This document shows positions 3,981 through 25,961 of a stretch of DNA of 41,324 bases, piece by piece. Origin of the DNA: Blastocatellia bacterium (GTDB taxonomy: Bacteria > Acidobacteriota > Blastocatellia > RBC074); NCBI GenBank assembly GCA_031371805.1, contig JANMKB010000244.1:1-41324 (forward strand), given 5' to 3'. Under the pieces are notes generated by a model. It had not been told where the DNA came from. It did not search any database and saw nothing but the letters and a program-made list of their open reading frames with translations. Position 1 is the first letter of the stretch. The number at the start of each line of letters is the position of its first letter. The position numbers and the translations under genes are program-made.

Positions 3981-4331
3981 GATTTGTTATCTCAATCAGT
4001 AATGATCTTTTTGGGCAATTCATTTCAGGGAACGGCAAATGTTTTTGTATTTAATTTTCCGGTGCGAATTAATCCATCCAATACAAGCACCAAATGAACA
4101 GCTAAAAAACCGTTGCCAGACATCACGCCGCCGCCGGAGCGAAACGTTATCATCGTTTGTTTATAGGGGTAAAGTTACCGCCAGCACCTCGCCACAAAAG
4201 GAAGAACTCTTTCGTGCGAACAGGTCAGAACCACAACTGACAATTACCTGTCAGACTTTCGGAACAGGAAATCGTTTGCTTGTCATTTGAATTTAGTATT
4301 GGGGGAATCTTGCCAGAGAGGAGTATAGAAG

Positions 4332-4349
4332 TTGCAATAAATATTGCAA
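4332..4349. promoter_or_regulatory. perfect 8-2-8 inverted repeat, possible operator
   Basis: TTGCAATA-AA-TATTGCAA in the divergent intergenic region between GH25 and gpsA. Confidence 0.35.
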
Positions 4350-4423
4350 GCGATTCGGTTGCAAATGTTTCATTTAATCCTCTCTATCTTGTAAATTCTG
4401 TTCATCCTGTCTATGTTTTGCCA

Positions 4424-5422
4424 ATGAAGAAAATTGCCATCATCGGCGCAGGTAGTTACGGGACTGCGCTTGCCTTGGTCGCCGCTCAGGCTGGACATGA
4501 AATAAAGCTTTGGGCGCACGATCCTGAAGTCGCGGCGACGCTCAAAACCCAAAAGCAAAATAAAGTTTATCTGCCCGGTTTTGACTTATCTGAAAATATT
4601 TCTCCAACGCACGATTTGTCTGAAGCTCTGCACGATGCTGAGTTAGTTATCACTGCCGTTCCTTCGCACGTTTGCCGCGAAGTATATGCAAATATGCTCC
4701 TGTATTTACAGGGCAAAATGATTTTCGTCAGCGCAACGAAGGGCCTTGAAATTCAGACGCAGATGCGCATGGAAGAAGTTGTGTGTGATGTTTTGCAAAC
4801 GAAATTTGCTCCGCGTTACGTCGCACTATCCGGCCCGACGTTTGCGCTGGAAGTTGCGCAAAATCAGCCCTGTGCCATTGTCGCTGCATCGTCTGATTTA
4901 GACGCTGCGACGGTTGTGCAATCCGTTCTTTCGACACGCCGCTTTCGTGTCTACACAAACAACGATGTCGTCGGCGTTGAAATCTGCGGCGCAGTCAAAA
5001 ATGTGATGGCAATTGCCACCGGATGCGTAAACGGTTTGGGACTGGGCTACAACAGCGCAGCGGCATTGATTACACGTGGGCTGGCAGAAATGACACGGCT
5101 GGCAGTGAAGCTGGGTGGACGCGGCGAGACGATGGCGGGCTTAGCCGGAATGGGTGATTTAGTGCTGACCTGCATGGGCAATCTTTCGCGCAATCGTCAG
5201 GTTGGTTTTGAGCTTGGACGTGGACGCACGCTCAAAGAAATTGTGAGCGAAACGCGGCAGGTTGCAGAAGGAGTGAAGACGGCGCAGGCTACGCATGAAT
5301 TATCAGAGCGCCTCGGCGTCGAATTGCCAATTACGACCGGGGTCTACAAAATGTTGTACGAAGATAAGACGCCACAGGAATTGTTAATGGAATTGATGGA
5401 ACGACCCCTCAAAGGGGAATAG
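4424..5422 (+). CDS. gpsA: NAD(P)H-dependent glycerol-3-phosphate dehydrogenase
   Basis: MKKIAIIGAGSYGTALA, SATKGLE, LSGPTFA, GAVKNVMAIA, GDLVLTC..SRNR, VAEGV. Start placed at ATG 4424. Confidence 0.96.
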   Translation: MKKIAIIGAGSYGTALALVAAQAGHEIKLWAHDPEVAATLKTQKQNKVYLPGFDLSENISPTHDLSEALHDAELVITAVPSHVCREVYANMLLYLQGKMIFVSATKGLEIQTQMRMEEVVCDVLQTKFAPRYVALSGPTFALEVAQNQPCAIVAASSDLDAATVVQSVLSTRRFRVYTNNDVVGVEICGAVKNVMAIATGCVNGLGLGYNSAAALITRGLAEMTRLAVKLGGRGETMAGLAGMGDLVLTCMGNLSRNRQVGFELGRGRTLKEIVSETRQVAEGVKTAQATHELSERLGVELPITTGVYKMLYEDKTPQELLMELMERPLKGE

Positions 5423-5434
5423 AATTTTCTCAAC

Positions 5435-5515
5435 ATGTACAAGCGTATTTTGTCTACAATGCAATTGAATGTTGAGGCTGGACGCATGATCATGACGAAT
5501 CATGCGGTCAAAGTT
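5435..5515 (+). pseudogene. N-terminal remnant of a DUF4258-like putative toxin
   Basis: MYKRILSTMQ...GRMIMTNHA resembles the DUF4258 N-terminus (..y.mT.HA). The rest is missing and the remnant is fused in frame to the next gene. Confidence 0.5.
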
Positions 5516-5770
5516 ATGAATACTGGAAAAACAAATTCGTACCAGATATGCCGGAACTGTGGGATGAGTGCCGCACGACAAGTCAAGCGCGACGAAATTT
5601 ATGGGCGTGGAAAACAAGCCGTCATTATTGAAGATGTTCCAATGATTCAATGCGATCAATGCGGGATGATTTATCTAGAGCCGCAAGTCATCACAACCAT
5701 TGATGATATTTGCGCACATCCTGAAAAGTATACGGCACAGGAGTATCGTCCGGTTGCCAAAATCGCGTGA
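5516..5770 (+). CDS. YgiT-type/MqsA-like zinc-finger protein (putative antitoxin)
   Basis: CRNCG...IIEDVPMIQCDQCGMIYLEP. Confidence 0.85.
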   Translation: MNTGKTNSYQICRNCGMSAARQVKRDEIYGRGKQAVIIEDVPMIQCDQCGMIYLEPQVITTIDDICAHPEKYTAQEYRPVAKIA

Positions 5771-5801
5771 AGCAAAGTGAGCTACAACACTCGCCTTGCC
5801 A

Positions 5802-5833
5802 TAATGGAATTGATGGAATGACCAGAGGAATAA
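5802..5833 (+). repeat. degenerate second copy of the gpsA 3' end
   Basis: TAATGGAATTGATGGAAtGACC (5802-5823) matches 5385-5406 at 21/22. It continues AGAGGAATAA versus AGGGGAATAG after a 6-nt gap. Confidence 0.85.
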
Positions 5834-5869
5834 GTTTGAATTAAATTGTAGCCATCAAAGGAGAGAGCC

Positions 5870-7675
5870 ATGCCCAATCGTTTATGCGCCGTTTTTCTCT
5901 TAGTTTTGTTGAGCAGTTGCTTTGCAAATCCAGCTTTCAGCCAGACTGAAAATACCGGAAACTTTACCATCAAGCCCGGACAATCTGTGTATATCGTTGC
6001 AGTCAAGGGCGATTGCGGAGGCGCTGCTGTTTCGGGGATTGTGAATGGGCAACTTATCATGGCTGGTGGGATGCCGCCCAGTGAATCCAAAGAGCAGCGC
6101 AAAATGTTAGGCTATACAGAACCGCTTCCTCACGTCGCCGAAATCATTGGGCAGGCGATGTCAAAAGACAAAACATTTGTAGTCGTCAATTCGCCCGACA
6201 AGGCGGATTTTATCTTTCACGTTTGTGCAGCGTATACGGAAGACCTGATGAATCCTGAAGTGCTGCGGCGGATGAATATGCGGTCGCAGTTAGTCTATTC
6301 CGAAGCGCGGATGATTCCGGCGTCCGTTTATCGCGCCGATAAAGAAGCGATTTTTGCTCCCATGTGGAAGGCCAAAACACCTGACCTTCAACGGTCTGTC
6401 CCGGCAAGTGATGCCAAGCCTGGAGAGAAAAAGAAAAAAGAGAAAAACCCTCCTGCCCCGCAACAACAAGGAAGGGTAGTCGTCAATGGTGTGCAAATGG
6501 CCATCGGGCCAAATACCGCAAATCGCTCGGCAGATTTTGATGATTTGATAAAATATTTTTTGCTGGATTATCCAAAAATTGCCGCGATAAAAATTCCTAA
6601 AGCGGGCATGGTGACTGCCACAATTATAGAGGATTCTCAACGCCCTGCCTTAACCAATAAACCTGATGACGCACCACTAGAAAAATCGCGTCCAGCGTTA
6701 GTAAAAAAGGCTGGGGAGCCGCTGACAGAAGCCAAATCTGAAACAACCGCCAAGCCTGCCACTGAAGCCGAAGAAGTTATCAAAGTGGATACTGCCCTGG
6801 TTTATGTTCCGGTGCGCGTCTTCGACAAAGACGGCAGGTACGTTCCTGATTTAACCAAAAAAGAATTCAAAGTTTTTGAGGATGATTCAGAACAGGAGAT
6901 TGAAAATTTTAGTAACGTGGATGACCCGTTTCATGTCGTGTTACTGCTGGATATGTCCGGCAGTACACGCTTCAAGGTCGAAGAAATTCAGGATGCAGCG
7001 CTGGAATTTATTGAGCAACTTCGTCCGCAAGATCAGGTGATGATCGCATCGTTTGAAAGCGCAATTTATGTAGATGCAGATTTTACGAATGATCGGGCAA
7101 AGCTGACCAAAGCAATCCTTCGCACACATACGGGTGGAGGTACGCGCTTGTATGATGCAGTTGATTTAGTCCTGACGGAAAGGCTGAATAAAATTCAGGG
7201 GCGCAAAGCGATTGTGCTTTTTTCGGATGGCCTTGACGGCACAAGTAAGGTCGCAACGTTAATGGGAAACTTCGATAAAGTTGAAGAGGCGAATACGTTA
7301 GTCTATACAGTTCATTACGATACAACGCCTGGCCTTTCTCAAGGGGTGCAAATTAACGGGGTTCTGGTTCAGCCGCATATCGCCGCAGGTGCGAAAGAAC
7401 GAATGAAAGAAGTAGCTGAACGCGCCACAATGTACATGAATGAATTGGCAATCCGCAGCGGAGGGCGCAGTTACGAAGCCGCTACAATGACTGATGCCAA
7501 ATCGGCCTTTGCCAATATCGCCGAAGAATTACGTCGTCAATACTGGCTGAGTTATTACTCCACGAATCCAAAAAGTGATGGCAGCTACCGAAAAATTCGC
7601 GTCGGAGTAAATCAATCCGACAGCAAAAAATGGGCAGTCCGTGCGAAAAATGGGTATCGCGCTCCGAAAAAATAG
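5870..7675 (+). CDS. secreted VWA-domain protein (acidobacterial VWFA-related type) with extra N-terminal domain
   Basis: Signal peptide; EVIKVDTALVYVPVRVFDKDG; MIDAS DMSGS; GGTRLYDA; RKAIVLFSDG; IAEELRRQYWLSY. Confidence 0.88.
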   Translation: MPNRLCAVFLLVLLSSCFANPAFSQTENTGNFTIKPGQSVYIVAVKGDCGGAAVSGIVNGQLIMAGGMPPSESKEQRKMLGYTEPLPHVAEIIGQAMSKDKTFVVVNSPDKADFIFHVCAAYTEDLMNPEVLRRMNMRSQLVYSEARMIPASVYRADKEAIFAPMWKAKTPDLQRSVPASDAKPGEKKKKEKNPPAPQQQGRVVVNGVQMAIGPNTANRSADFDDLIKYFLLDYPKIAAIKIPKAGMVTATIIEDSQRPALTNKPDDAPLEKSRPALVKKAGEPLTEAKSETTAKPATEAEEVIKVDTALVYVPVRVFDKDGRYVPDLTKKEFKVFEDDSEQEIENFSNVDDPFHVVLLLDMSGSTRFKVEEIQDAALEFIEQLRPQDQVMIASFESAIYVDADFTNDRAKLTKAILRTHTGGGTRLYDAVDLVLTERLNKIQGRKAIVLFSDGLDGTSKVATLMGNFDKVEEANTLVYTVHYDTTPGLSQGVQINGVLVQPHIAAGAKERMKEVAERATMYMNELAIRSGGRSYEAATMTDAKSAFANIAEELRRQYWLSYYSTNPKSDGSYRKIRVGVNQSDSKKWAVRAKNGYRAPKK

Positions 7676-7691
7676 GAAAAAGGTTTCGCCG

Positions 7692-8162
7692 GTGATACTA
7701 CCAGATTATAAAATTCGCCTTGCTACAATTGATGATGCTGCTATTATCGCACGTCATCGCGCCGAGATGTTTTTTGATATGGGTTATATTGATGCACAAC
7801 AGATGGACATCGTCGCTGGTAATTCTTTACCGATGCTCCAGGCGATGTTGGTGTCCGGCGAGTATCGTGGCTGGCTGGTAGAATTTGAAGGTGAAATTGT
7901 TGCAGGCGGTGGTATGATTTTGCGTCGCTTGTTGCCGCGTCTTGGTTGTTTCAGCGGAGGACAAGAAGCCTATATTTTGAATATGTTCACTGAGCGTGAA
8001 CATCGCCACAAAAATTTGGCGCGGCACCTGATGCAAGTGATGATTGAGTGGTGTCAGAAAAATAAAATGGGTCGAGTTTCCTTGCACGCTTCGGACGCGG
8101 GTCGTCCACTCTATGAAAGTCTGGGATTTGCAACGACCAACGAGATGATGTGGAAGCAGTAA
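7692..8162 (+). CDS. GNAT family N-acetyltransferase
   Basis: IRLATIDD, YILNMFTEREHRHKNLAR, LHASDAGRPLYESLGF. GTG start chosen. Confidence 0.88.
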   Translation: MILPDYKIRLATIDDAAIIARHRAEMFFDMGYIDAQQMDIVAGNSLPMLQAMLVSGEYRGWLVEFEGEIVAGGGMILRRLLPRLGCFSGGQEAYILNMFTEREHRHKNLARHLMQVMIEWCQKNKMGRVSLHASDAGRPLYESLGFATTNEMMWKQ

Positions 8163-8180
8163 AGAAAGTAGTTTTACGAG

Positions 8181-8642
8181 ATGTCAGAGAAAATTATCAG
8201 CTCCAACCGAGCCGCCTACCATAATTATTTTATCCTTGATACTTACGAAGCGGGAATCGTACTCAAAGGGACGGAAGTGAAATCTGCGCGTGAAGGCAGT
8301 GTGAATTTGAAGGAAGGATATGTCCTGGTGCGCGATGGCCAAATCTGGTTGCTCAATGTGCATATCAATCAATATTCACACGGCAATCGTGAAAACCATG
8401 ACCCGACACGCGAACGTCGCCTGTTAATGCACAAGCGCGAAATCGTCCGCTTGCAATCAAAAATTAAGGAAAAAGGCTTGACTGTCGTCCCGACAAAATT
8501 TTATTTCAAGAATGGATTTATCAAGTGTGAGATCGGCATTGCGCGCGGAAAGAAACTGCACGATAAACGCGAAACGGAAACGAAAAAAGATCAGGAGAGA
8601 GAAGCGCGTTCAGCGCTGAAACAACGAAATAGAGATGATTAA
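8181..8642 (+). CDS. smpB: SsrA-binding protein
   Basis: NRAAYHNY..YEAGIVLKGTEVKSAR, RERRLLMHKREI, ARGKKLHDKRE. Confidence 0.97.
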   Translation: MSEKIISSNRAAYHNYFILDTYEAGIVLKGTEVKSAREGSVNLKEGYVLVRDGQIWLLNVHINQYSHGNRENHDPTRERRLLMHKREIVRLQSKIKEKGLTVVPTKFYFKNGFIKCEIGIARGKKLHDKRETETKKDQEREARSALKQRNRDD

Positions 8643-8644
8643 AA

Positions 8645-8672
8645 TGTCCAACAAACTGAAGTTTATTGGACA
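8645..8672. repeat. REP-like palindrome
   Basis: TGTCCAA-C-AAACT-GA-AGTTT-A-TTGGACA just after the smpB stop. Confidence 0.6.
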
Positions 8673-8750
8673 CTTGAAAATTTAATTTACGGTGTAATTA
8701 TTAAAGCAAACAAGGAAGTTTGCCGGATATTTTAGGAGCTAATAAATCAA

Positions 8751-10244
8751 ATGGAAGTCAAAGCAGACGCACGGAAATTTCACGAAATCGAATGTGATGC
8801 GTTGGTGGTCAGTGTCTACGAAGGCGAAAAGCCGGAGGAGAGCAACGCCTTAGCCGAACTGGACAAACGTTCCAACGGAGTCATTACTTCATTGATCGAA
8901 AATGGTGAATTATCAGGGAAAACCGGAGAAATTGTTTACCTGCACAGCCCCGGCGACATCGCGGCAAAGCGTTTGTTATTGCTCGGCGCGGGGAAGCTGG
9001 CGGATTACAATACCGATGTCGTGCGACGTGTGGCGGGAACTGCGGCTCGTTTTCTGCGGGCAAAAAATGTACGCAAATTTGCTTTCTTACGACGCTCACA
9101 AATTCCGCTCGGCGATGCCGTTCAGGCAGGCGTCGAAGGGGCACTGCTCTCACTGTGGGACGCCAATAAATATCACACCAGCGACAAAGAAGAGAAGTTG
9201 ATTGAGCAAATGATTCTGGCTACTGTTGAAGGCGATTCTCAGGAATTATCGCAGGGCGCTGAGCGTGGACAAATTTTAGCCGAAGCCGCCAACTTCGCCC
9301 GCGAAATCGTCAACGAACCAGGCAATTACATGACTCCGACCGAACTTGCTCGTCAGGCGGAAGAGGTTGCGCAAAAATACGGTTTAGAAATTGATGTGCT
9401 TGACGAAGCGCGGATGAAAGAGCTTGGCATGGGGTCTTTGCTGGGCGTTTCACAGGGCAGTGCCGAACCTGCCAAATTAATTGTGCTGACGTATACGCCA
9501 AGCGCCGAGCCGACCTCGAAAGAAACCATCGCCATCGTTGGCAAAGGGGTGACGTTCGACACGGGTGGTATTTCAATTAAGCCAGCGGACAGCATGGAAA
9601 AGATGAAATACGATATGGCTGGCGGCGCGACAACCATTGCGGCGATGCGGGCGATTGCACAACTCAAGCCCTCTATGAATGTTATTGGTATTGTTCCCGC
9701 CGTCGAAAATATGCCGGGCGGACGTGCGCAGCGTCCCGGCGATGTTGTTCGTTCGATGGCTGGTAAAACTATCGAAGTTATCAACACCGATGCTGAAGGT
9801 CGTTTAATTTTGTGCGATGCGCTGACGTATGCGATCCAGCTTGGCGCGACGAAAATTGTAGATTTGGCGACGCTGACCGGAGCCGTTTCTATCGCGCTTG
9901 GCGATGTGTATGTTGCCGCGTTGGGCAACGATCAGGAATGGATAGATGCGGTAATTAACGCAGGCAAAGCTTCGGGCGAAAAGATTTGGCAATTGCCACT
10001 TGACCGTGAATACCGCGATCAAATCAAGAGCGATATTGCCGACATCAAAAATGTTGGCGGTCGCAAAGCCGGGACGATCACTGCCGCATATTTCCTGCGT
10101 GAATTTGTCGGCGATATTCCCTGGGTGCATCTCGACATCGCGGGTACAGCCTGGAATGACAGCAGCAAACCTTATCTTTCAGTTGGGCCGACAGGAATTT
10201 GTGTCCGAACACTCGTGAACCTGGTGAATCAAATGGCGAGCTAA
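8751..10244 (+). CDS. pepA: leucyl aminopeptidase (M17)
   Basis: VGKGVTFDTGGISIKP, MKYDMAGG, NTDAEGRLILCD, ATLTGA, WVHLDIAG. Confidence 0.96.
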   Translation: MEVKADARKFHEIECDALVVSVYEGEKPEESNALAELDKRSNGVITSLIENGELSGKTGEIVYLHSPGDIAAKRLLLLGAGKLADYNTDVVRRVAGTAARFLRAKNVRKFAFLRRSQIPLGDAVQAGVEGALLSLWDANKYHTSDKEEKLIEQMILATVEGDSQELSQGAERGQILAEAANFAREIVNEPGNYMTPTELARQAEEVAQKYGLEIDVLDEARMKELGMGSLLGVSQGSAEPAKLIVLTYTPSAEPTSKETIAIVGKGVTFDTGGISIKPADSMEKMKYDMAGGATTIAAMRAIAQLKPSMNVIGIVPAVENMPGGRAQRPGDVVRSMAGKTIEVINTDAEGRLILCDALTYAIQLGATKIVDLATLTGAVSIALGDVYVAALGNDQEWIDAVINAGKASGEKIWQLPLDREYRDQIKSDIADIKNVGGRKAGTITAAYFLREFVGDIPWVHLDIAGTAWNDSSKPYLSVGPTGICVRTLVNLVNQMAS

Positions 10245-10361
10245 AATATTGCCAGGTGCTTGTAAGTTAGGTGACTACATGGCGCGAAAGAGGAAAATAT
10301 AAAGACTTGGCAATATGAAACAGAGTGAAGTAGGAATCATAAATTTACTTTATAGTGTATT

Positions 10362-11144
10362 TAAGCACCTAAGCAAAAGTAATGCAGTATTTTGAGCCGA
10401 CACCTTTTAAGACCGCAAAAAGGTCTTTCGTTAATTGTGCAAACGACTCACTCGTGCTCAGGGGCAACCATTCGTATTTGATTTTGCGCCACAGGTGTTC
10501 GATCAAATTCAGTTCCGGGCAAGAGGGCGGGAGGTGCATAATGTGCAGGTCGTGCGCCTCTCAGTCTTCCAGGCGGTCGGTAAAATCCGCGCTCCAATGA
10601 ACGGGCGCCTTGTCGCGTACGACCAGCGCCGAGCGCTTGAGTTGACCGCAAATTCGTCCAGACAATAAATAATGGTGTCACTGTCGAGCGACTGTGTGAA
10701 CGCGTAAGAATGAAACTCTTGTTGCAGGCTCCACAAGCCCATCACGTTCTGGCGCGGCCCGTGCGCGGCAGCCAACTCCCAGCACTCGCCGACTTTTTGC
10801 CACGCATACGGGACACTCGGAATGGTCGTGAAACCGGCTTCGTCGCTGTACCACAAATCAAACTCACGTTTGGGCAAAGCGCAATATTGACGCAGGTCGG
10901 CGCGCGTTTGTGTGGCGCCACGAAAGGCTGCTTCGTCCCGGCTCGAACGCCGGCTGCGGCGCCTCCGTTTCCAGGTATAGCCGGCTGCCCGGAGCCAGCG
11001 TTTCAGTGTCTCTTTACTCACGATTTGCCGAAAAGTAGTCGTGATCCAATGTAATCCCTGGCGCAACAAACGTGGCTCTTTAAGCGTTTGCGCAAGGGCT
11101 TGGGACTGTTCTTCCGCGTTCAGTTTTGGCGGTCGCCCACTGCT
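10362..11144 (-). mobile_element. IS630-family element remnant (left end deleted, transposase frameshifted and with an internal stop)
   Basis: SGRPPKL, winged-helix segment, YSDEAGF; then in another frame VVRDKAPVH...ED*EAH...LPPSCPELNLIEHLWRKIKYEWL...KYCITFA*. Right end TAAGCACCTAAGCAAAA at 10362. Confidence 0.88.
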
Positions 11145-11186
11145 CACCTTCTGCTTTATCAATCCTTCCTGTGTGAGGGGCTTCAT
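11144..11186 (-). pseudogene. HEPN-domain gene 5' remnant
   Basis: Restoring one T gives MKPLTQEWIDKAEG, a typical HEPN N-terminus, overlapping the MNT end. Confidence 0.65.
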
Positions 11187-11480
11187 ATAAAACTTTTCCG
11201 CGCTCCATGATTTCCTGCATAAAGCGATCTCCCAGCCGCAAATGTTCGCTCACCTGATCAGACGTTCGCACTAATAAATCAATCGGAGTAAGCGTATTCA
11301 GATATTGGAGAATTTTGATCGCCTGCAGGTGTGCCGTCCTTCGTAATCCATCACCACCAGCAAGTCAATATCGGATTCAGGCCTGGGTGTGCCATCGGCC
11401 TGCGAGCCGAATAAGATGATTTTGTCGGGATGAAAATGCGCGGCAATTTGTTTGCTAAATTGTGCAATGCGCGATGCCAA
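11160..11480 (-). pseudogene. minimal nucleotidyltransferase (MNT antitoxin), frameshifted
   Basis: FHPDKIILFGSQADGTPRPESDIDLLVVM; second frame PIDLLVRT...GDRFMQEIMERGKVLYEA. Confidence 0.85.
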
Positions 11481-11765
11481 AAAGTTTTTGGGGACAGTGG
11501 CGGAAGGGGTGACAGTTGTTGTTGCAGCGGCTCGGTTCAGGGCGAGTGAATTGTACGGGGTTCACGTAGGCGTGTCAAAAAAATAATTTCGTGCTGATAA
11601 GGAGAATTGAGATCGGAGCCGCCTGATTGTGGGGTGATTTTGCCGTCTTGCAATATTGCTTGCCATCGTCTAAACCCGCTGTTATTCTTGCCGTTTATTT
11701 TGCTGTCAAAAATGATGACATGGCTGTGCAGCAAATTTTTCAAACCTTAGTACCAGGCAGGATTT

Positions 11766-13583
11766 ATGACCAACCCTATTCGTAATATCGCAATCGTCGC
11801 GCACGTTGATCACGGCAAAACTACTTTAGTTGATTCAATGCTCAAGCAATCCGGGCTGTTCCGCTCCAACGAAAAAGTTGTCGAGCGCGTAATGGATTCG
11901 ATGGATTTGGAGCGTGAACGCGGCATCACCATTATGGCGAAAAATACTTCGGTGCATTTTGGTGACCTGAAAATTAATATTCTTGATACGCCAGGTCACT
12001 CGGATTTTGGCGGCGAAGTTGAACGCGTATTGACGATGGTGGATGGAATTCTTTTGCTGGTGGACGCTTCAGAAGGCCCGCTCCCGCAAACGCGTTATGT
12101 TTTGTCAAAGGCTTTGGAACTAAAGCTGAAACCAATTGTTGTTATCAACAAAATTGATCGCCAGGATGCGCGCGTAGAAGAAGTCGTCAGCGAAGTCTAC
12201 GACCTGTTTATTGACCTTGACGCGGATGATGACCAGATTGAATTTCCGATTTTGTATGCAATTGCCCGCGACGGCATAGCGAAGCATGAACTGGATCACG
12301 AAAGCGAGACGCTGAAACCACTGTTTGAAGAAATCGTCCGCACGATCCCAGCGCCAATTGGTAACCCAAACGCACCGTTGCAAATCCTGGTGGCGAACCT
12401 GGATTACAGCGAATACGTCGGACGCCTGGCAATCGGACGTATTTTCAATGGCTCCATTGCCATCGGCGATCAGGTCTCAGTCTGTGGCATTGACGGACAA
12501 CTTACAAAAACCAAAGTCACACAGCTTTACGCTTTTGAGGGCTTGAAACAGGCACCGATTGAACGCGCCGAAGCAGGTGAAATCATTGCGCTGGCCGGCA
12601 TCGAAGGCATCAATATTGGCGATACTGTGACCTCGGCAACCGACCCGCGACCGTTGCCGCGCATCCACATTGATGAACCGACGATCTCCATGATTTTCAG
12701 CGTTAACAATTCGCCGTTTGCAGGCAAGGAAGGGAAGTACGTGACTTCGCGGCAAATTCGGGAACGCCTGGATAAAGAATTGCTTGGTAATGTGGCAATC
12801 AAAGTCGAAGACACCGATTCGCCGGAAAAATTCAAAGTTTCAGGCCGCGGTGAATTGCAACTCGCAATTTTGATTGAGCAAATGCGCCGCGAAGGTTTCG
12901 AGCTTAATGTCGCTCGCCCCCAGGTTGTCACGCGCAAAAATGACGAAGGCGGATTGCAGGAACCCATTGAAATGGCAGTGATTGACGTACCTGATCAATT
13001 CATTGGCATCGTCACCGAAGCGATGGGACGCCGCAAAGGGCAGATGACGAAAATGGTCAATCACGGTCACGGTCGGGTGCGGATGGAATTTGAAATTCCT
13101 TCGCGTGGGTTGATCGGTTTCCGCAATGAATTTTTGACCGAAACTAAAGGTACAGGTTTGCTCAACACATTATTCCTGCGCTGGGGAAAATGGCAGGGCG
13201 AGTTGCACGGACGCGGCACAGGCTCGCTGGTTTCGGATCGCACCGGCCCGACAACGGGATACGCAATTTTCAATTTGCAGGAACGCGGCGAATTGTTTGT
13301 GAAACCGCAAGTCGAAGTTTACGAAGGCATGATCGTCGGCGAAAATTCACGTGTCGTTGATTTGGATGTGAATATCGTCCGCGAAAAGAAGCTGACCAAC
13401 ATGCGCGCCTCCAGCGCCGATGAAGCGTTACGACTTGTCCCCGTGCGCGATTTGACCCTGGAACAGGCCATCGAATACATCGCCGAAGATGAACTGGTCG
13501 AAGTCACTCCAAGCTCAATCAGAATGCGCAAGAAAGTATTGCCAGCGAATATGCGCCCGAAATCCAAGAAAGCGGCGGAATAA
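11766..13583 (+). CDS. typA: translational GTPase TypA/BipA
   Basis: [55 protein letters not shown]. Confidence 0.98.
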
Positions 13584-13633
13584 TTGTCACTACGCGGTTA
13601 AGAGGCTAAAGTATTCTGAAAGGAGCTAGACTA

Positions 13634-13867
13634 ATGGCGCAAAACTTACTCGTTGAAATTGATCTGCCTGAAAGTCTGAATCAGTTCAAATTGCCTGTTG
13701 GCGTGAATGAGCGATTACAGGATTTACTAGATCGCCAGGATCAAGGCCAGAGCCTCTCGCACAATGAAAGAAAGGAAGCTGAAGGGCTGGTTGATTTGGC
13801 GGAATTTCTTTCATTACTGCGGTTGCGAACTCAAAGAATACAGCGTGAAGGACAGCCTGCCGCATGA
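13634..13867 (+). CDS. small helical protein, putative antitoxin partner of HNH nuclease
   Basis: AAGGAG RBS; ATGA overlap with the HNH gene; RLQDLLDRQD...ERKEAEGLVDLAEFLSLLRLR. Confidence 0.75.
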   Translation: MAQNLLVEIDLPESLNQFKLPVGVNERLQDLLDRQDQGQSLSHNERKEAEGLVDLAEFLSLLRLRTQRIQREGQPAA

Positions 13868-14274
13868 GTTACATTTCGGCATTTCTGCGACGGCTCGCTA
13901 TCCGTAGGGCAAAGAATCGTTGTGAATATTGTCGTTTGTCGCAAGTTGGGCAGGAAGCCACTTTTCATATTGATCATATCATTCCGGTTAATGCTGATGG
14001 GCAAACTATCGCTGACAATTTAGCCTTGGCTTGCGTTTCCTGCTCATTACGGAAAGCCGCCCGTCAAACTGCCATTGATCCACAAACTAATCAGAAAGTT
14101 GCGTTGTTTCACCCACGTCAAGAGCGGTGGACAGATCATTTTTACTGGGAAGGCCCGGAAATTATTGGTCTGACGCCGACAGGCCGAGCAACAATTGCTG
14201 CTTTGGATATGAATCGTAAATTGATCCTGGCAATTCGCGTAGAAGAAATTTTATTGGGACGGCATCCAAACTAA
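13864..14274 (+). CDS. HNH endonuclease
   Basis: RCEYC...FHIDHIIP...DNLALACVSCSLRK, LFHPR..W.DHF.W, GLTPTGRATI..L.MN. Confidence 0.9.
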   Translation: MSYISAFLRRLAIRRAKNRCEYCRLSQVGQEATFHIDHIIPVNADGQTIADNLALACVSCSLRKAARQTAIDPQTNQKVALFHPRQERWTDHFYWEGPEIIGLTPTGRATIAALDMNRKLILAIRVEEILLGRHPN

Positions 14275-14291
14275 ACAAAATTTTTGACAAG

Positions 14292-14395
14292 TAAGTAGGT
14301 CGGCAGAATCATTACGGTATAAAGATTCGCTTTCGGTCAATGAAAACAGGGCAGTCAGATTTCAAAATACCAGAATAGATTTGCCTGGGTACTTA
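14292..14395. mobile_element. 104-bp MITE-like element related to IS630
   Basis: TA-bounded imperfect TIRs TAAGTAGGTCGGCAGA...TTTGCCTGGGTACTTA. The last 34 nt align without gaps to the IS630 right end at 10362-10395. Confidence 0.75.
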
Positions 14396-14421
14396 GGCTT
14401 TACCCAAACGCGAACCCGTGC

Positions 14422-14600
14422 GCATCAACGGCAGATGAAGCGGTGCGCTCAGTGTCCGTGCGCGAACTGACGTTGGAACAAGCAATCGAATATATCGCCG
14501 AAGATGAACTGGTCGAAGTCACTCCAAGCTCAATCAGAATGCGCAAGAAAGTCCTGTCAGGGAATATGCGTCCGAAGTCAAAGAAAGCGGCGGAGTAATT
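14422..14600 (+). repeat. diverged second copy of the typA 3' end (58 codons plus stop, no start)
   Basis: Aligns ungapped to 13407-13585, with a 59-nt identical core (14494-14552 = 13479-13537). Encodes [58 protein letters not shown]. Confidence 0.95.
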
Positions 14601-14689
14601 CTTGTTCTAAAAACAAACCCTGCTGGATGACATAGACAGGTTAGCAGGAGCGTTTAGCTGGAGAAAGTAGAAACTCTGCTGCCATAAAT

Positions 14690-14723
14690 TAGCCCTACAA
14701 AGTCATAAGGCTCTGTAGGGCTA
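14690..14723. terminator. stem-loop, probable terminator between convergent units
   Basis: TAGCCCTACA...TGTAGGGCTA followed by TAATTTTT. Confidence 0.6.
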
Positions 14724-14759
14724 TAATTTTTCCAAAGTGGATTGTGCCTTTACTTTAAG

Positions 14760-15173
14760 TTATTTTGATTTTTTCTCTAATAGAGCATTGATTGCATTGA
14801 GTACATTTGCAGGTAATACTGTTTCTGATACTCCACCATCCTTAAATTTAATAGAGCGATTAACAACAAAAGATTTAGTTAAATCTTCGGTTAATGTCAC
14901 TACCCAGCGCACATTTACATCTTTGTCATAAATAAATATAACGGGGATTGTTTTTTCTTCTAAGGACTCAAAGACTGGAGGTGTCTTTTTAGCTGATTTG
15001 CCTTTGACCAGCTCGTAAGTGTCACCATTAGCTGTGATTATTAGCGTACCCTGTTCAGTGTTTGTAGCCCTAAAAGGAGATTCTATTAAGGTGCTCCAAG
15101 CACCTGTTTTAATCCAGCTATCTTCTATAACTTTTTCATTATCATTATTTTTCTCATCGCTAATATTAATCAT
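14760..15173 (-). CDS. hypothetical protein (AT-rich)
   Basis: 137-aa ORF, 12 bp downstream of the preceding same-strand ORF. Confidence 0.6.
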   Translation of the reverse strand: MINISDEKNNDNEKVIEDSWIKTGAWSTLIESPFRATNTEQGTLIITANGDTYELVKGKSAKKTPPVFESLEEKTIPVIFIYDKDVNVRWVVTLTEDLTKSFVVNRSIKFKDGGVSETVLPANVLNAINALLEKKSK

Positions 15174-15185
15174 TTTTACTTTATT

Positions 15186-15778
15186 TCAATTACCTTTTAC
15201 CTGCCCCCAAGAGGTTATTTGATTGTCGGCAGCTATATAAAGCGCACACTTCCCCTCTTTGTTTATGACAAAATCATAGTTGATCTCAGGGTTAGTTGAT
15301 CTTACTTTACCAGTAACTGTATCAAACAGGTAGGCAGACTGAAGAGGGGTTAACGTTATATACTCAGACTTATCATTAATAAACCCAATATTCATTAAAT
15401 TAGATATTACTTTGCTGTTATGATATTCAGTTGTCTCAAGGTTGCTTATTTTAATCCGGGCCAGTGCATAGGCATTACCGTTAACTTGCAATTTAGAAGA
15501 CAATGAATAAATATAATCTTCTTCAATTTTCCACAGTGGGATAGTTGAGTTGGTGAGAATTGAGACAGGCAAATACCAGTTAGTTTGTTTCGCGTTATTA
15601 GATAAGTCGAATTTTGTCAAGGTACTAAATTGATAGAGGTCATCGGTCTTTACGATCTACAAGTAGTCCTTGCTAACAGTGATGGTAAAATCAGCTTGGT
15701 TAGGTGGTTCTTGCCCTAATACTTGCCAAGCATTTTCATTGATACAAAAGATTAAACATAAAACTATCAAGGTTATTC
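15186..15778 (-). pseudogene. secreted hypothetical protein, 5'-truncated with in-frame stop
   Basis: The frame of ORF 15186-15620 extends upstream through TAG (15657-15659) to a signal-like ITLIVLCLIFCINENAW segment that lacks its start codon. Confidence 0.55.
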
Positions 15779-16761
15779 TAACTCAGAGCATTAGGCGCTA
15801 TTGTAAAGTTTGCGCGGATCTGTGTGTCTGTATTTGAGGCAATCGTATACGTTATTCCAGTGCCACTAATTTGAAGCAGCGGGTTTATGCCAAACCCAAT
15901 TCCGTCAATAACAAATTCTTTGGTGGTTCCTGACTCCCAGGCTGCCGGACTAATAGCGGTTATAGTAGGGGTAGGATCACCAACTGTGAACGCTTGTTGA
16001 TTACTAATTCCGAACATATTGGTGAGAGTTAAGGTTTGTTGTCCTGTTGTGGCGTTACTGGCAAGTGTGTAGTATAAGTTCACTTGCGAGTAACTAACAT
16101 AAACAGGAGTGACAGAAGGATTTCCACCACTGATTTGGGCTTGTGTGGTGCCAAGCATATATTGCCCATAAATCTCTATATAACCGGAACTACCTCGGAC
16201 TGCCCCTGATGGAATAATTCCTTCAATTGCAGGTGGACGCGCGGCATAGCCAACCCCTGTTGTCCCAATATAAATATAACTACTTTGGACGTAGAGAGGG
16301 CCGCTATTAGGTAAGAATTGAAACCCACTGGGGTTTGAATTGCCAGTGGAGCCGAAATTAAAGCCCGCAGGGTTATAGTAACTATACCCATAATCAGGGT
16401 CGTAGTAGGTGTAATAAGCAACGACGTAGTGATCACTTTCCAGCTTATAGCTGGAAGGAATAACTACTGGCGCATGCATGTAGCCGTAAGCTATATTCTG
16501 AGAGCTTCCACTTAAACCGCTTCCTGACCGTATGAGTACCCAAAGCAGTCCTTGTTTCTGGTAAAGATACCCTCCGACATATGCGTCATAATAAAAGTTT
16601 GCATAGTAATCAAGTTCAGTTGCCGAATAAGTGTCAACTGTAACGGGGTTGGGGTTAATTATTGCTGAAACGCCAATCACATATTGCGCCTGAGCTGCTT
16701 ACGTTCCAAGTGAAATAAGCACTGCAATAGAAAATGCAATTGTGAGCCAATAACGAAACAT
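15778..16761 (-). pseudogene. secreted IPT/TIG-repeat protein; stop in signal peptide and 3'-truncated
   Basis: MFRYWLTIAFSIAVLISLGT*AAQAQY (TAA 16699-16701); IPT repeats PPAIEGIIPS..IEIYG and PTITAISP..IDGIGFG; ends abruptly within the second repeat. Confidence 0.7.
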
Positions 16762-22048: not shown

Positions 22049-23515
22049 TTATTCCGCCCGATAATTAGGTGCTTCTTTTGTAATGAACACATCGTGAACG
22101 TGTGATTCTTTCAGGCTGGCGGCAGTGATTTTGATGAAGCGCGCATTCGTTTTCAGTTCTTCAATTGTGCGGCATCCGGTGTAGCCCATGCCCGCCTTCA
22201 GGCCGCCAACCAATTGTCCAACTAAAGCCGCCAGCGAACCTTTGTGCGTCACGCGACCCTCGATGCCTTCGGGAACCAGCTTGCTTTCGGCTTCGGTGGA
22301 TTCCTGTCCATAACGATCTTTGCTGCCTTCTTTCATCGCGCCGATGGAACCCATGCCGCGATAAGATTTGAAATTGCGTCCCTGATACAAAATGATTTCG
22401 CCCGGCGATTCGTCCGTACCGGCGAGCAATGAACCAATCATGACGGAGTCTGCGCCGGCGGCAATGGCCTTTGTCACGTCGCCGGAAAATTTAATTCCGC
22501 CATCAGCAATGATCGGGATGCCTGAACCTGCCGCTGCTTTCGCGCATTCGGCCACGGCAGTGATTTGGGGAACACCTGCGCCAGACACGACCCGCGTAGT
22601 GCAAATTGAGCCTGGCCCCATTCCTACTTTTACTGCGTCTACGCCTGCGTGAATCAGAGCTTTTGTGCCTGCTCCGGTTGCCACATTGCCAGCGATTAAT
22701 TGCACTTCGGGATATTTTTGCTTGACTGCTTTAATGGCTTCAAGCACGCGCACAGAATGACCATGCGCAGTATCAATCGCCAGCACGTCGACGCGCACTT
22801 TGATGAGTTCAGCCGCGCGTTCGAGAAAATCTCCGGTTGCGCCAACGGCTGCGGCGACGCGCAGTCTGCCCAAATCATCTTTGGCAGCGTTGGGATATTT
22901 GATCGCTTTCTGAATATCTTTGACGGTGATGAGTCCTTTGAGGTGATAGTTTTCGTCCACTACTAACAGCTTTTCGACGCGATGCTTTTGCAGGATACCT
23001 TCAGCCTCGCGCAAAGTTGTGCCGACAGGAACGGTGATGAGATTGTCTTTCGTCATCACTTCAGAAATAGAGAGTTCCAGCCGATTCTCAAACCGCAAAT
23101 CACGATTAGTCAGAATTCCAACCAGCCTGCCATCACTCTGCACAATCGGCACACCGGAAATTTTAAAGCGCTGCATCAATTCCAGCGCATCGCGCAGCGG
23201 ACGTTCCGGCGTAATTGTTACCGGATCAACGATCATGCCAGATTCGGAGCGTTTGACTTTATCAACCTCATCGCGCTGCACTTCAATCGGGAAATTTTTA
23301 TGAATGACTCCGATGCCACCCTGTTGCGCAATCGCAATTGCCATCGGGCTTTCGGTGACAGTATCCATCGCTGAGCTAAGAAGCGGGATATTCAAATAGA
23401 TGGTGCGAGTTAAGCGCGTGATGGTGTCCGCTTCGGTGGGCAAAAATTCGGAATAATCAGGCAGTAATAAAACGTCGTCGAATGTCAGTGCTTCGGGTAG
23501 ATTTTCGGTTAGCAT
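22049..23515 (-). CDS. guaB: IMP dehydrogenase
   Basis: [19 protein letters not shown] pair, [29 protein letters not shown]. Confidence 0.98.
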
Positions 23516-24546: not shown

Positions 24547-24695
24547 GCGTAACCTTTGCCTATCCCCTTCTACATCCTGGTTCTGCGATGAGATTTTTTT
24601 CGTGAATTATTGATCTTGAAAATACAGCTCAACAAGTCGGCAATCTTACAGTTAAATTATCGCGGCTGTCAATTTTGCAGGCACACTATTGTTTT

Positions 24696-25961
24696 TTACA
24701 TTCGTTTCGTGGCAGCCAGTCGGGCTGCCTGTTTGCGAATGACATCAGGAACATTGCGATTAGAGGTCAGCGCCTTCAGGTCTTTGGGGAACAAGCGATT
24801 GAGGAGCGGCAAGCTGGTTCCAACAGGAGTCCGGGCATTTTGTACCAGATGGTGAATAATTGGATAGCTCCGAATCCATTGGCGATTGAGTGCAATCAGG
24901 CGCAATCCTTCTTCTGGCAAGGACTTCATCGCTGAGATTGCTTCAACTTCGGGCTGGGTAATCCGTGGATTGCCGAGGACACCGAGAATGACCGATTTGT
25001 TGGAATCGCGGCGTAGAATGTTGCGTGCTTCGCGGTTACCTTTGAGGGCGAGCTTGACGCGTGATTTGATATTCATTCTGGTGATCTTCTGCATCATCGT
25101 CAGGCGCTCGACGGTTGTCTCTTCACCATCCATCTTCATTTCATTGATGATGCGCTCAGCTTCAGCTTCTGCCTCAGAGTCAGCCGGGGTTTCAGCTTCA
25201 GAGCCGACTGAAACTTCAACCAATTGTTGCGGCGGATCGGGTTCTTCCTGAACCCGTTGCATTTCATCCCGAATAATTTTAATGAACTCGGACCCTATCT
25301 TAGGATCATCATCGGATTGAAAAGCTGCTTCAAAATTCAGGTCTTCAACCGGAATGTCGTCATCAAGCATGTCCGGCAGGGATTCTTCGACATAGTTGAG
25401 ACCTAAAGCCGCAGACATCGCTGCTGCACGGGCGCGACGTTCTTCGCCAATGCGTTTGGCCCCCAGTTCTTTCTCGAAAAATTCAATTCGTACTTCTTTT
25501 GCTCGGCGAATGGCTTCGGCACTACTGGCTTTGTTCTCAATCAGTGAGGTAATAATTTCAGGATAGCGAATCATGCGTTCCTGATTGATCGCAATCAATT
25601 CAAGTAATTTAGCTTCTTTATTCCAACGCGCTAATTCAGTGATTCCCTGATCCGGGGTCGAATCATTCAGAATCAGGGCTTCGTAAATCTCCGTCTTACC
25701 GCCACGCCAACTGCATAAATGTTGCAAAATATCCCGTGGGGTTTCTTTTATTAACACAACTTGGCGCATTCTTTCAGGCGCAAAATCGTTCAGAGATTTC
25801 GTGGCTAATGAGCGTATTTCCGCGTCATGATCTTTGCTCAGAACAACGAGAATTTCCAGCAGGTCTTCCGATGGAATGGGTAGCGCAGCACGGGCGGCAG
25901 CGAGTTTGGCGGCAGCAGGGGCGGCTCCATTACGGATAGCAGTAACAATAGGACTAGCCAT
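24696..25961 (-). CDS. conserved hypothetical helical-repeat protein
   Basis: 421-aa ORF with an acidic linker and C-terminal RVKLALKGNREARNILRRDSNK..VL.NPRIT..EV. Confidence 0.8.
   Translation of the reverse strand: MASPIVTAIRNGAAPAAAKLAAARAALPIPSEDLLEILVVLSKDHDAEIRSLATKSLNDFAPERMRQVVLIKETPRDILQHLCSWRGGKTEIYEALILNDSTPDQGITELARWNKEAKLLELIAINQERMIRYPEIITSLIENKASSAEAIRRAKEVRIEFFEKELGAKRIGEERRARAAAMSAALGLNYVEESLPDMLDDDIPVEDLNFEAAFQSDDDPKIGSEFIKIIRDEMQRVQEEPDPPQQLVEVSVGSEAETPADSEAEAEAERIINEMKMDGEETTVERLTMMQKITRMNIKSRVKLALKGNREARNILRRDSNKSVILGVLGNPRITQPEVEAISAMKSLPEEGLRLIALNRQWIRSYPIIHHLVQNARTPVGTSLPLLNRLFPKDLKALTSNRNVPDVIRKQAARLAATKRM

Follow-up and report, generated by a model that had tools for sequence, protein, structure and literature searches.

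Duplicated host-gene tails around small toxin-antitoxin-like cassettes in a Blastocatellia genome: a candidate route of integrase-free insertion

How small toxin-antitoxin (TA) and defence cassettes reach chromosomal sites without mobility genes is an open question, and a single contig of a Blastocatellia bacterium (GenBank assembly GCA_031371805.1, contig JANMKB010000244.1, positions 1 to 41,324) raises it twice. The window, by which we mean this whole stretch of 41,324 nt, is the entire contig C266 of a 753-contig, 6.25-Mb assembly with a G+C content of 48.9%. Within it, the genes typA/bipA and gpsA are each followed by a small cargo and then by a second copy of their own 3′ end. We call the host-gene tail upstream of the cassette copy 1 and the second tail downstream of it copy 2; G000 stands for the window's genome, other G numbers for related genomes, C numbers for contigs and L numbers for fetched loci. 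On balance, we consider it probable that such loci are integrase-free “tail-replacement” insertions, in which a small selfish cassette enters together with the last 40–190 nt of the host gene's ortholog. The typA locus, where the cargo is an HNH nuclease gene and a small helical partner, is laid out as follows.

11766..13583, plus strand: typA/bipA (Pfam GTP_EFTU 5.1e-53, BipA_C 2.7e-47).
13398..13585, plus strand: typA tail copy 1, functional and in frame (repeat search, alignment with relatives).
13634..13867, plus strand: 77-residue helical partner of the HNH protein, an uncharacterised family and likely inhibitor or antitoxin (no Pfam match; found at 80/80 loci; complex model).
13864..14274, plus strand: 136-residue HNH nuclease, PtuB-like (PF01844 1.3e-10; PADLOC PtuB 2e-11; invariant Cys/His/Asp/Asn columns).
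14292..14395, no strand: miniature inverted-repeat transposable element (MITE) with TA...TA ends and imperfect inverted ends (copies in relatives; sharp-ended alignment; loose end at 14292).
14413..14600, plus strand: typA tail copy 2, displaced, with an open frame and non-conservative changes at its 5′ edge (repeat search, alignment).
14690..14731, plus strand: terminator-like hairpin and T-run behind copy 2, probably the native typA terminator (predicted site 14709–14722 with T-run; longer stem read from the sequence).

The first-pass annotation of this DNA, made from the sequence alone, had described a typA repeat at an offset of 1015 bp around a helical protein and an HNH gene, and this is confirmed by the repeat search and by the BipA_C and PF01844 matches. 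The two tails form a direct repeat of 188 nt at 84% identity with a spacing of 1015, and copy 2 by itself still matches BipA_C at 2.5e-13. Both reach the TAA stop plus 2 nt, where the similarity ceases, and identity along them is uneven (55/77 before a core, 64/67 within the core, which holds a 59-nt identical run, and 36/42 beyond it). The insert between them measures 827 nt (0.83 kb): a 48-nt spacer separates copy 1 from the 77-residue open reading frame (ORF), which overlaps the HNH ORF by ATGA, and the MITE of about 100 nt (approximately 14292–14395) lies between HNH and copy 2. The MITE is a later arrival than the cassette; it has one copy in G000, four in G006 and others in G012 and G003, and one of the G006 copies adjoins ORFs that, by eye, resemble an IS630-type transposase. 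With the MITE discounted, copy 2 begins about 36 nt past the HNH stop. No terminator-like site was predicted between the typA stop and the cassette, the single site being the one behind copy 2, which fits the earlier suggestion that the cassette may borrow host transcription; promoter-like sites are no more frequent than in shuffled sequence. Rfam gave no matches in 5300–14800, introns included.

The HNH pair carries the same arrangement far beyond this genome. A search for related loci returned 80 HNH loci at 59–75% identity, in Acidobacteriota, Cyanobacteria, Planctomycetota, Chloroflexota, delta-proteobacterial and Binatia metagenome-assembled genomes (MAGs) and others, with the partner ORF directly upstream of HNH at all 80 and typA as the neighbour at none. 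For the repeat test, the 450 nt upstream of an exactly placed cassette were compared with the 2.5 kb downstream, which was possible at 72 loci. A flanking direct repeat was present at 25/72, and at 14/72 a repeat of at least 40 nt began no more than 250 nt past the HNH stop, 11 of these with an expectation value of 1e-8 or better; six sets of shifted pseudo-cassette controls gave 0, 2, 2, 1, 1 and 0 such repeats (6/369). A search at the protein level for diverged tail copies added little (13/72, several of them weak or paralogous). Copy spacing falls between 697 and 1126 nt at 18 loci, the window included, so that only the two cassette genes fit between the copies. In 12 coding cases (typA, L073, L139, L119, L124, L104, L094, L068, L091, L114, L145 and L154) copy 1 ends within 3 nt of the host stop, which for L091, L114 and L068 is visible only at the protein level, and at L114, L066 and L076 the HNH stop codon is provided by copy 2. 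Four further loci have distant repeats that are possibly paralogous domains (L071, L078, L110 and L129).

The host genes at these loci are unrelated to one another: typA, an NMT1-type binding protein, an E2 acyltransferase, a VWA protein, GcvP, a CoA-transferase III, a PQQ propeller protein and a Trans_reg_C regulator. Within the window's family, HNH homologs occur in 60 of 87 genomes, with a maximum of 19 in one genome and a single one in G000. Among 40 paralog loci fetched from the family, 36 were testable and four of these showed a close repeat, compared with 1 and 0 among the controls; in the two strong cases, repeats of 175 nt at 91% and 191 nt at 92%, copy 2 begins 6 and 4 nt past the HNH stop. 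The gene is strongly multi-copy in some relatives (17–19 matches in G062, G064 and G102). It was also found on 35 cyanobacterial plasmids, and a phage collection gave no match.

The HNH protein retains its Cys4 and His/Asp/Asn columns and resembles the Septu PtuB models of PADLOC (2e-11), its solved relatives being only the HNH domains of Cas9 and of other HNH-domain proteins. Its partner belongs to a family of at least 1604 cluster representatives; none of the 120 representatives listed has a Pfam domain, and those that bear a name at source are, with one exception, called “hypothetical protein”. A model of the partner–HNH complex scored 0.89 against 0.02 for the best control, a mark reached by 58/80 solved complexes and 2/110 mismatched pairs in a calibration that is rough, since our own alignments were used. 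Model runs agree in at least 95% of contacts, with a partner pLDDT (predicted local distance difference test) of at least 78, and the modelled interface takes in HNH residues 29–38 and 58–62, including the invariant H35, D37, H38 and C60, which supports binding of the partner over the HNH active site. HNH carries an internal stop beside an intact partner at L104 and L139; in G008 (L030) and G015 (L019) the partner has survived and HNH is missing. This loss of HNH before its partner resembles the erosion of toxins in TA pairs. Taken with the ATGA overlap of small co-oriented genes and the invariable pairing, the modelled interaction has some of the marks of a type II TA system, and the pair looks like a nuclease with its inhibitor, of toxin-antitoxin or nuclease-immunity type. 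As a nuclease of a homing family encoded outside any intron or intein (PF01844 1.3e-10, no Rfam intron match), HNH also shares a feature with free-standing homing endonucleases.

At gpsA the repeat is shorter and the cargo is of another kind.

4280..5422, plus strand: gpsA, NAD-dependent glycerol-3-phosphate dehydrogenase, true start probably downstream of 4280 (Pfam NAD_Gly3P_dh_N 1.4e-48, NAD_Gly3P_dh_C 1.1e-55).
5385..5422, plus strand: gpsA tail copy 1, in frame, ending in TAG (aligns with the lone tail of the empty G012 site).
5423..5801, plus strand: 379-nt insert missing from G012 and G010, with an ORF for a YgiT-type zinc finger that probably starts at 5516 and stops at 5770 (comparison of empty with filled sites; TIGR03831 2.6e-12).
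5802..5833, plus strand: gpsA tail copy 2, displaced and native, with a 6-nt deletion, ending in TAA and followed by native downstream DNA (downstream sequence matches G012).

The repeat first noted at an offset of 417 (21/22 matches) is real, and longer than it had appeared: comparison with the empty G012 site extends the duplicated unit from 22 nt to the last 38 nt of the gene, through the stop. The two-gene, DUF4258-like/YgiT cargo that had been proposed was not borne out. The insert holds one ORF of about 84 residues, with the N-terminal CxxC zinc ribbon of MqsA/YgiT-type antitoxins (TIGR03831 2.6e-12; weak YokU/MqsA matches), and no Pfam match to DUF4258 was found in the ORF 5435–5770 or on the opposite strand, nor any adjacent DUF4258/MqsR toxin or C-terminal helix-turn-helix domain. 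The supposed toxin comes to at most a dozen residues. Judged by these matches, the cargo behind gpsA is a single antitoxin-like gene, and no toxin can be recognised beside it; an intact DUF4258+YgiT pair is present elsewhere in G000, on C299. Copy 1 shares its TAG stop with G005, the other YgiT carrier, and copy 2 its TAA with the empty G012 site. The 379-nt and 827-nt inserts hold only the small ORFs named and leave no room for an integrase, in agreement with the earlier reading that neither carries an integrase or transposase.

Self-comparison of gene ends located the layout three more times in G000. For each of 9060 ORFs of 100 or more residues, the terminal 180 nt were compared with the following 4 kb, and pairs scoring at least 16 numbered 81 for tails, 31 for reverse-complemented downstream DNA and 69 for mid-gene segments; at a score of 32 or more the counts were 27 tail pairs, 14 mid-gene pairs and 0 reverse-complement controls. 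Tandem paralogs, dispersed repeats and spurious ORFs make up most of the strong pairs, and five cases of the layout remain (typA, gpsA and the three below).

C197: Rpn/YhgA-like host gene, repeat of 146 nt at 92%; cargo a DUF6932 nucleotidyltransferase and a 69-residue ORF.
C234: histidine kinase host, repeat of 80 nt at 91%; cargo an AbrB-like ORF and a PIN-like ORF with a broken N-terminus.
C373: PSCyt/PSD1 host protein, repeat of 45 nt at 93%; cargo an AbiJ/PDC-S32-like gene and a 125-residue ORF.

For all three, the end of copy 1 coincides with the host stop or falls 12 nt short of it, and copy 2 begins 0–45 nt past the last cargo stop. The layout thus recurs, as had been claimed. Set beside the expectation that a genome-wide check would find such duplications enriched for TA pairs, they are rare (5 among some 5262 filtered ORFs), yet all five cargos are small TA- or defence-like modules. 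The description of the hosts as housekeeping genes suits typA and gpsA; it does not suit the Rpn/YhgA-like gene of C197, or the VWA protein and the regulator at related HNH loci. At C234, the seemingly empty G009 and G003 hold a different AbrB(+PIN) allele, while the first allele is found in G012, G002, G001, G007 and G005; G000 has both in tandem with the second tail between them. C197 could not be traced in relatives, its host gene being multi-copy and the DNA past copy 2 a dispersed palindromic repeat of about 265 nt. That repeat, which matches both strands and lies just behind copy 2 (L001, about 350–620), has dozens of copies per genome in the genus.

Other pairs from the scan were set aside. 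C722, C300, C634, C247, C340, C480, C594, C539 and C699 are tandem paralogs with similarity running along the genes; C559 and C484 contain dispersed repeats of the repetitive extragenic palindromic type; the “genes” of C552 and C684 look like spurious antisense ORFs; and C407 and C484, at 66–69% identity, were handled as paralog-like. C96 (51 nt at 82%, with a GMC oxidoreductase and cytochrome c as cargo) was not counted among the five. A duplication of a gene head was seen on C299 (L005), where the first 77 nt of a 651-residue gene are repeated at 96% identity 2.1 kb upstream (22445–22521 and 24647–24723). Three cargo genes lie between the head copies (344 residues, a DUF4325 STAS-like protein and 199 residues), and the DUF4258+YgiT pair sits just ahead of the upstream one.

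Empty and filled versions of the sites were found among relatives. In 12 of 13 same-genus genomes typA ends at its stop with nothing cassette-like behind it (typA was not found in G008), and the cassette stands there in G000 only. In G004, G007, G011 and G014 the HNH cassette lies elsewhere than behind typA, and no repeats were detected around it; the partner ORF occurs alone at a non-typA locus of G008 (L030); in G015 (L019), an unpublished genome used for this one point, typA is followed by the partner ORF only. At gpsA, G012 and G010 are empty and G008 is filled like G000, while G005 has a homologous YgiT ORF between gpsA and the next gene with no duplication. Polymorphism at a single site among close relatives was seen at the PQQ gene of genus g2: G064 has cassette and duplication, G062 the cassette without duplication, and G060, G065 and G014 lack the cassette. 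For G063 there are short matches to the partner region and an HNH homolog located on the same contig. The empty sites at gpsA and typA agree with insertion as first proposed, and no relative searched has a larger island or an integrase at typA, gpsA or the other sites of the layout in G000. A cassette-free oxidoreductase locus in G000 did not set the left end of the cassette, its downstream DNA not being conserved.

Orphan typA tails, far from typA itself and in non-syntenic contexts within the same genus, were found at G014:C35 (L036 4035–4225), G064:C521 and G063:C448. The tail in G014 is interrupted by a stop codon, matches the tail of G014's own typA at 87% identity and starts at the same codon position as copy 2 of the window (residues 5–6 of the 66-residue query in both G014 and G000). 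No HNH was found near it, and among the 150 matches listed no HNH of the family lies on contigs with typA or orphan tails of G014, G015, G063 and G064. Apparent orphan tails of G062 and G072 stand at contig ends with overlaps of 141–144 nt and were read as assembly breaks, not as events. In these two genomes typA is split exactly in its tail at contig ends (G072 C389 and C455; G062 C647, C793, C725 and C1170), which may reflect strain mixtures with and without an insert, or plain assembly breaks.

Neither chance nor a chimeric assembly accounts well for the two layouts of the window. By our own arithmetic, a 21/22 pair within 3 kb is expected about 1e-4 times in 12.5 kb. Logan contigs of run X2 are continuous over 13508–14523 and break only at the 31-mer-identical core, and contigs of a second study span the joints at 13585 (X5 record 28) and 14413 (X4 record 24) with a few differences; runs X1–X3 may be source samples of the assembly. 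The G008 assembly has the same gpsA architecture at 96.7% identity. The objection of an assembly chimera, raised with the original observation, is countered by independent contigs across both typA joints and by G008. Contigs of four runs showed neither a joint skipping the cassette nor a circle joint; contigs drop rare forms, and this has no weight either way.

The divergence between the two tails bears on where each came from. Codon by codon, 14 pairs of copy 1 and copy 2 gave 90.7 synonymous (Sd) and 84.3 nonsynonymous (Nd) differences, that is, proportions pS of 0.239 and pN of 0.070 and a pN/pS of 0.29. Values for single pairs include 0.21 at L145, 0.18 at typA, 0.15 at L154, 0.13 at L073, 0.07 at C197 and 0 at C373, and copy 2 has no stop or frameshift in any of the 14. 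Duplication in place with free drift of one copy should, by our own estimate, give about 0.55 or more. The lower value indicates that most of the divergence arose while both tails functioned in genes of different lineages. The two tails look like diverged functional alleles, as though the cassette had brought a foreign tail and displaced the native one. At the PQQ gene of G064 there are patches in which copy 1 has variants of its own while copy 2 is like all five relatives, and copy 2 aligns, together with the DNA behind it, with the cassette-free G060; this points to copy 1 as the tail that arrived with the cassette and to copy 2 as the resident. Both results favour the earlier proposal that the element carries a host-gene tail of its own.

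We therefore picture tail replacement as beginning with host homologous recombination inside the conserved gene, which would make the left joint. The host gene would then end in the imported tail (copy 1) and continue into the cassette, and the similarity would end at the stop codon because what follows in the imported piece is spacer and cassette from the donor. The resident tail (copy 2) would stay behind the cassette as an unused remnant ahead of native downstream DNA. The right joint, 0–41 nt past the last cargo stop, would have been made once and then inherited, and copy 2 could serve as the right-hand homology arm within the same conserved gene. Expression would come from the host gene's transcript and retention from addiction, loss of the cassette being harmful. 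Tentatively, and with less confidence, we suggest that the helical–HNH pair is a widespread, undescribed class of minimal 0.7–1.1-kb recombinase-free mobile element that enters conserved genes at their 3′ ends with a recoded tail as replacement and keeps the native tail as second homology arm; its nuclease would provide a break in naive alleles, addiction, or both, and other TA cassettes would use the route passively.

Several observations weigh against tail replacement or strain it. About 80% of cassette loci have no duplication, and four (L076, L089, L121 and L095) duplicate non-coding terminator DNA, not a tail. Three pairs (L119, L104 and C234) have a pN/pS near 1. At typA the copy that should be foreign looks native left of the 67-nt core, with 139 agreements of copy 1 against 49 with 11 relatives, and right of the core the agreements are even (22 against 15). 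Which copy is foreign at typA is thus undecided, and this mosaic requires the assumption of a hybrid, formed by crossover in the tail or by gene conversion at a later time; sliding-window identity against eight relatives gave no recombination breakpoint along typA. The tight right joint is unexplained, as are the stop codons that differ between otherwise near-identical copies (L139, L119, L124, L145 and gpsA). No shared motif was seen by eye at the repeat boundaries, and an HNH protein that stays 60–75% identical across phyla though its hosts differ argues against sequence-specific homing by protein recognition. Most genomes compared are MAGs. Neither an intermediate of recombination nor a circular or excised form came to light, and the mechanism is therefore one that we infer.

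The surroundings of typA hold further signs of mobile DNA. Just upstream, at 10369–11186 and 11080–11480 (both minus strand), lie a broken DDE_3/IS630-type transposase in two ORF pieces and, beside it, a short NTP_transf_2 nucleotidyltransferase ORF with a 63-residue neighbour, which looks like a decayed MNT/HEPN-type pair. Directly behind copy 2, the stretch 14600–15800 is low in G+C (33–37% against 49% for the genome) and holds two minus-strand ORFs (137 and 144 residues) of no Pfam family; it is possibly another foreign insert.

Could the second tails be scars without any role? Islets behind conserved genes would in that case be moved by one-sided homologous recombination, and the HNH pair would merely be transferred or retained often. 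We regard this as unlikely, though it has points in its favour: five unrelated cargos in G000 share the layout, one of them a lone antitoxin-like gene without nuclease; G005 and G062 hold the same cargo at the same gene without duplication; and C234 consists of two tail+AbrB alleles in tandem, of which relatives have one or the other. Two papers offer precedents, one proposing homologous recombination at flanking core genes as the way in which compact TA islets integrate (PMC13617665) and one documenting one-sided recombination (PMC3240628). A random illegitimate joint should, however, leave variable donor DNA behind the cargo, whereas copy 2 begins 0–45 nt past the last cargo stop at gpsA, C197, C373, C234 and most HNH loci (about 36 nt at typA without the MITE), and the layout is enriched around the HNH pair (14/72 against 6/369). 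Active homing, in which HNH freed from its partner cuts a cassette-free allele near the start of copy 2, repair copies tail 1 with the cassette and the broken native tail is rejoined behind, strikes us as distinctly improbable. The conserved HNH fold and metal and catalytic columns would suit it, as would the polymorphism of the cassette at one gene among close relatives, the beginning of the G014 and G000 orphan tails at one and the same codon, the odd non-conservative changes at the 5′ edge of copy 2 at typA and G064, the up to 19 family copies per genome and a mitochondrial parallel, in part of PMC6279837, of atp6 and cob C-terminal duplications with GIY-YIG or LAGLIDADG ORFs. Homing has to contend with one highly conserved protein behind many unrelated genes that share no target motif, with nuclease-free cargos (gpsA, C234 and C197) in the same layout, and with a G014 orphan tail without nearby HNH and other genus g2 orphan tails that are not syntenic.

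Another origin would be decay, the inserts being remnants of larger integrase-bearing islands in the 3′ ends of typA and gpsA that lost all but the TA pair. Tail-restoring direct repeats are the classic signature of such islands, the typA repeat contains an identical 59-nt run, remnants of IS630-like and MNT/HEPN type are found upstream of typA, with a low-G+C stretch behind copy 2, and orphan typA tails stand far from typA in G014, G064 and G063. We nevertheless hold it very improbable: no searched relative has an island at these sites, the cassette-free sister genome at gpsA differs by the insert only, and repeated decay to the same two genes, with copy 2 0–41 nt past the HNH stop and a spacing of 0.7–1.1 kb, behind many unrelated genes in several phyla, is very unlikely. 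Scarcely any credence goes to duplication of the target in place by a transposition-like step, with staggered cuts 40–190 nt apart that are filled in, or to an assembly artefact. Some repeats are indeed 95–98% identical (L073, L139 and L124), and the four loci with duplicated non-coding DNA would suit duplication in place. The pN/pS of 0.29 (0.07–0.21 in the longest pairs) is set against our estimate of about 0.55 or more, the repeats stop at the stop codon, not anywhere downstream, and there is no transposase and no inverted repeat at the insert ends, features that equally set the inserts apart from a transposon or insertion sequence with target-site duplication; an artefact is contradicted by the contigs of two studies across the joints and by the same gpsA architecture in G008. 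Tail replacement remains our preferred reading. Of the first-pass account, the observations of the typA layout, the gpsA repeat and the integrase-free inserts stand and the two-gene gpsA cargo with its DUF4258 toxin falls; its interpretation keeps the recurrence, the empty sites and the TA- or defence-like cargo, and loses the details of gpsA cargo and repeat and the “housekeeping” scope.

Islands, prophages and integrative and conjugative elements that integrate into a gene's 3′ end restore the tail from attP, and direct repeats are their classic signature. The loci described here share with them the gene-tail repeats, the intact gene and the displaced tail at the far end; they differ in having no tyrosine or serine recombinase or other integrase in or beside the insert, in inserts of only 0.4–1.1 kb, and in repeats that are long and diverged throughout in place of a short identical core. 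Septu PtuB and other defence HNH nucleases are alike in HNH sequence (2e-11 to PtuB models), whereas no PtuA ATPase adjoins here, the neighbours being typA and the 77-residue partner of an unnamed family. As a rule, homology-facilitated illegitimate recombination removes DNA of the recipient at its illegitimate joint; here such DNA is retained as the repeat and the joint lies consistently at the cargo end. The likeness to that process, as described for transformable bacteria, is one homologous anchor with one non-homologous joint and the addition of small foreign segments (PMC3240628). Chromosomal TA islets, described in part of PMC13617665 as lacking mobility genes, scattered among relatives and proposed to spread by host recombination at flanking core genes, are small addictive cassettes, as the present ones may be; the passages concerned mention no gene-tail duplication, and here both arms lie in one conserved gene. 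The nearest described parallel is in fungal mitochondria, where passages of PMC6279837 report atp6 and cob followed by C-terminal duplications, with free-standing GIY-YIG or LAGLIDADG homing endonuclease ORFs beside or between them: a nuclease ORF directly behind a conserved gene, a partial C-terminal second copy downstream and no integrase. The present cases are on bacterial chromosomes of several phyla, with HNH in place of GIY-YIG or LAGLIDADG and many host genes, and their HNH is always paired with a small partner that is modelled on its active site. A keyword search of the open-access literature found no account, in bacteria, of the cassette or of TA islets that duplicate a gene tail; this does not prove that there is none.

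A cassette carrying a spare end of its host gene would explain integrase-free insertion into essential genes without damage, the repeated acquisition of one cargo behind a given gene across lineages, and the orphan gene tails found in genomes. If this is true, with both arms in one conserved gene, the element can cross between genomes of differing gene order, and its signature of gene, small cargo and second tail ending at the stop codon can be searched for in any genome. The common, unannotated family of the 77-residue partner (at least 1604 representatives) is, from the complex model, a likely inhibitor of a common HNH nuclease, and the layout could serve as a natural model for inserting DNA behind conserved genes without a recombinase.

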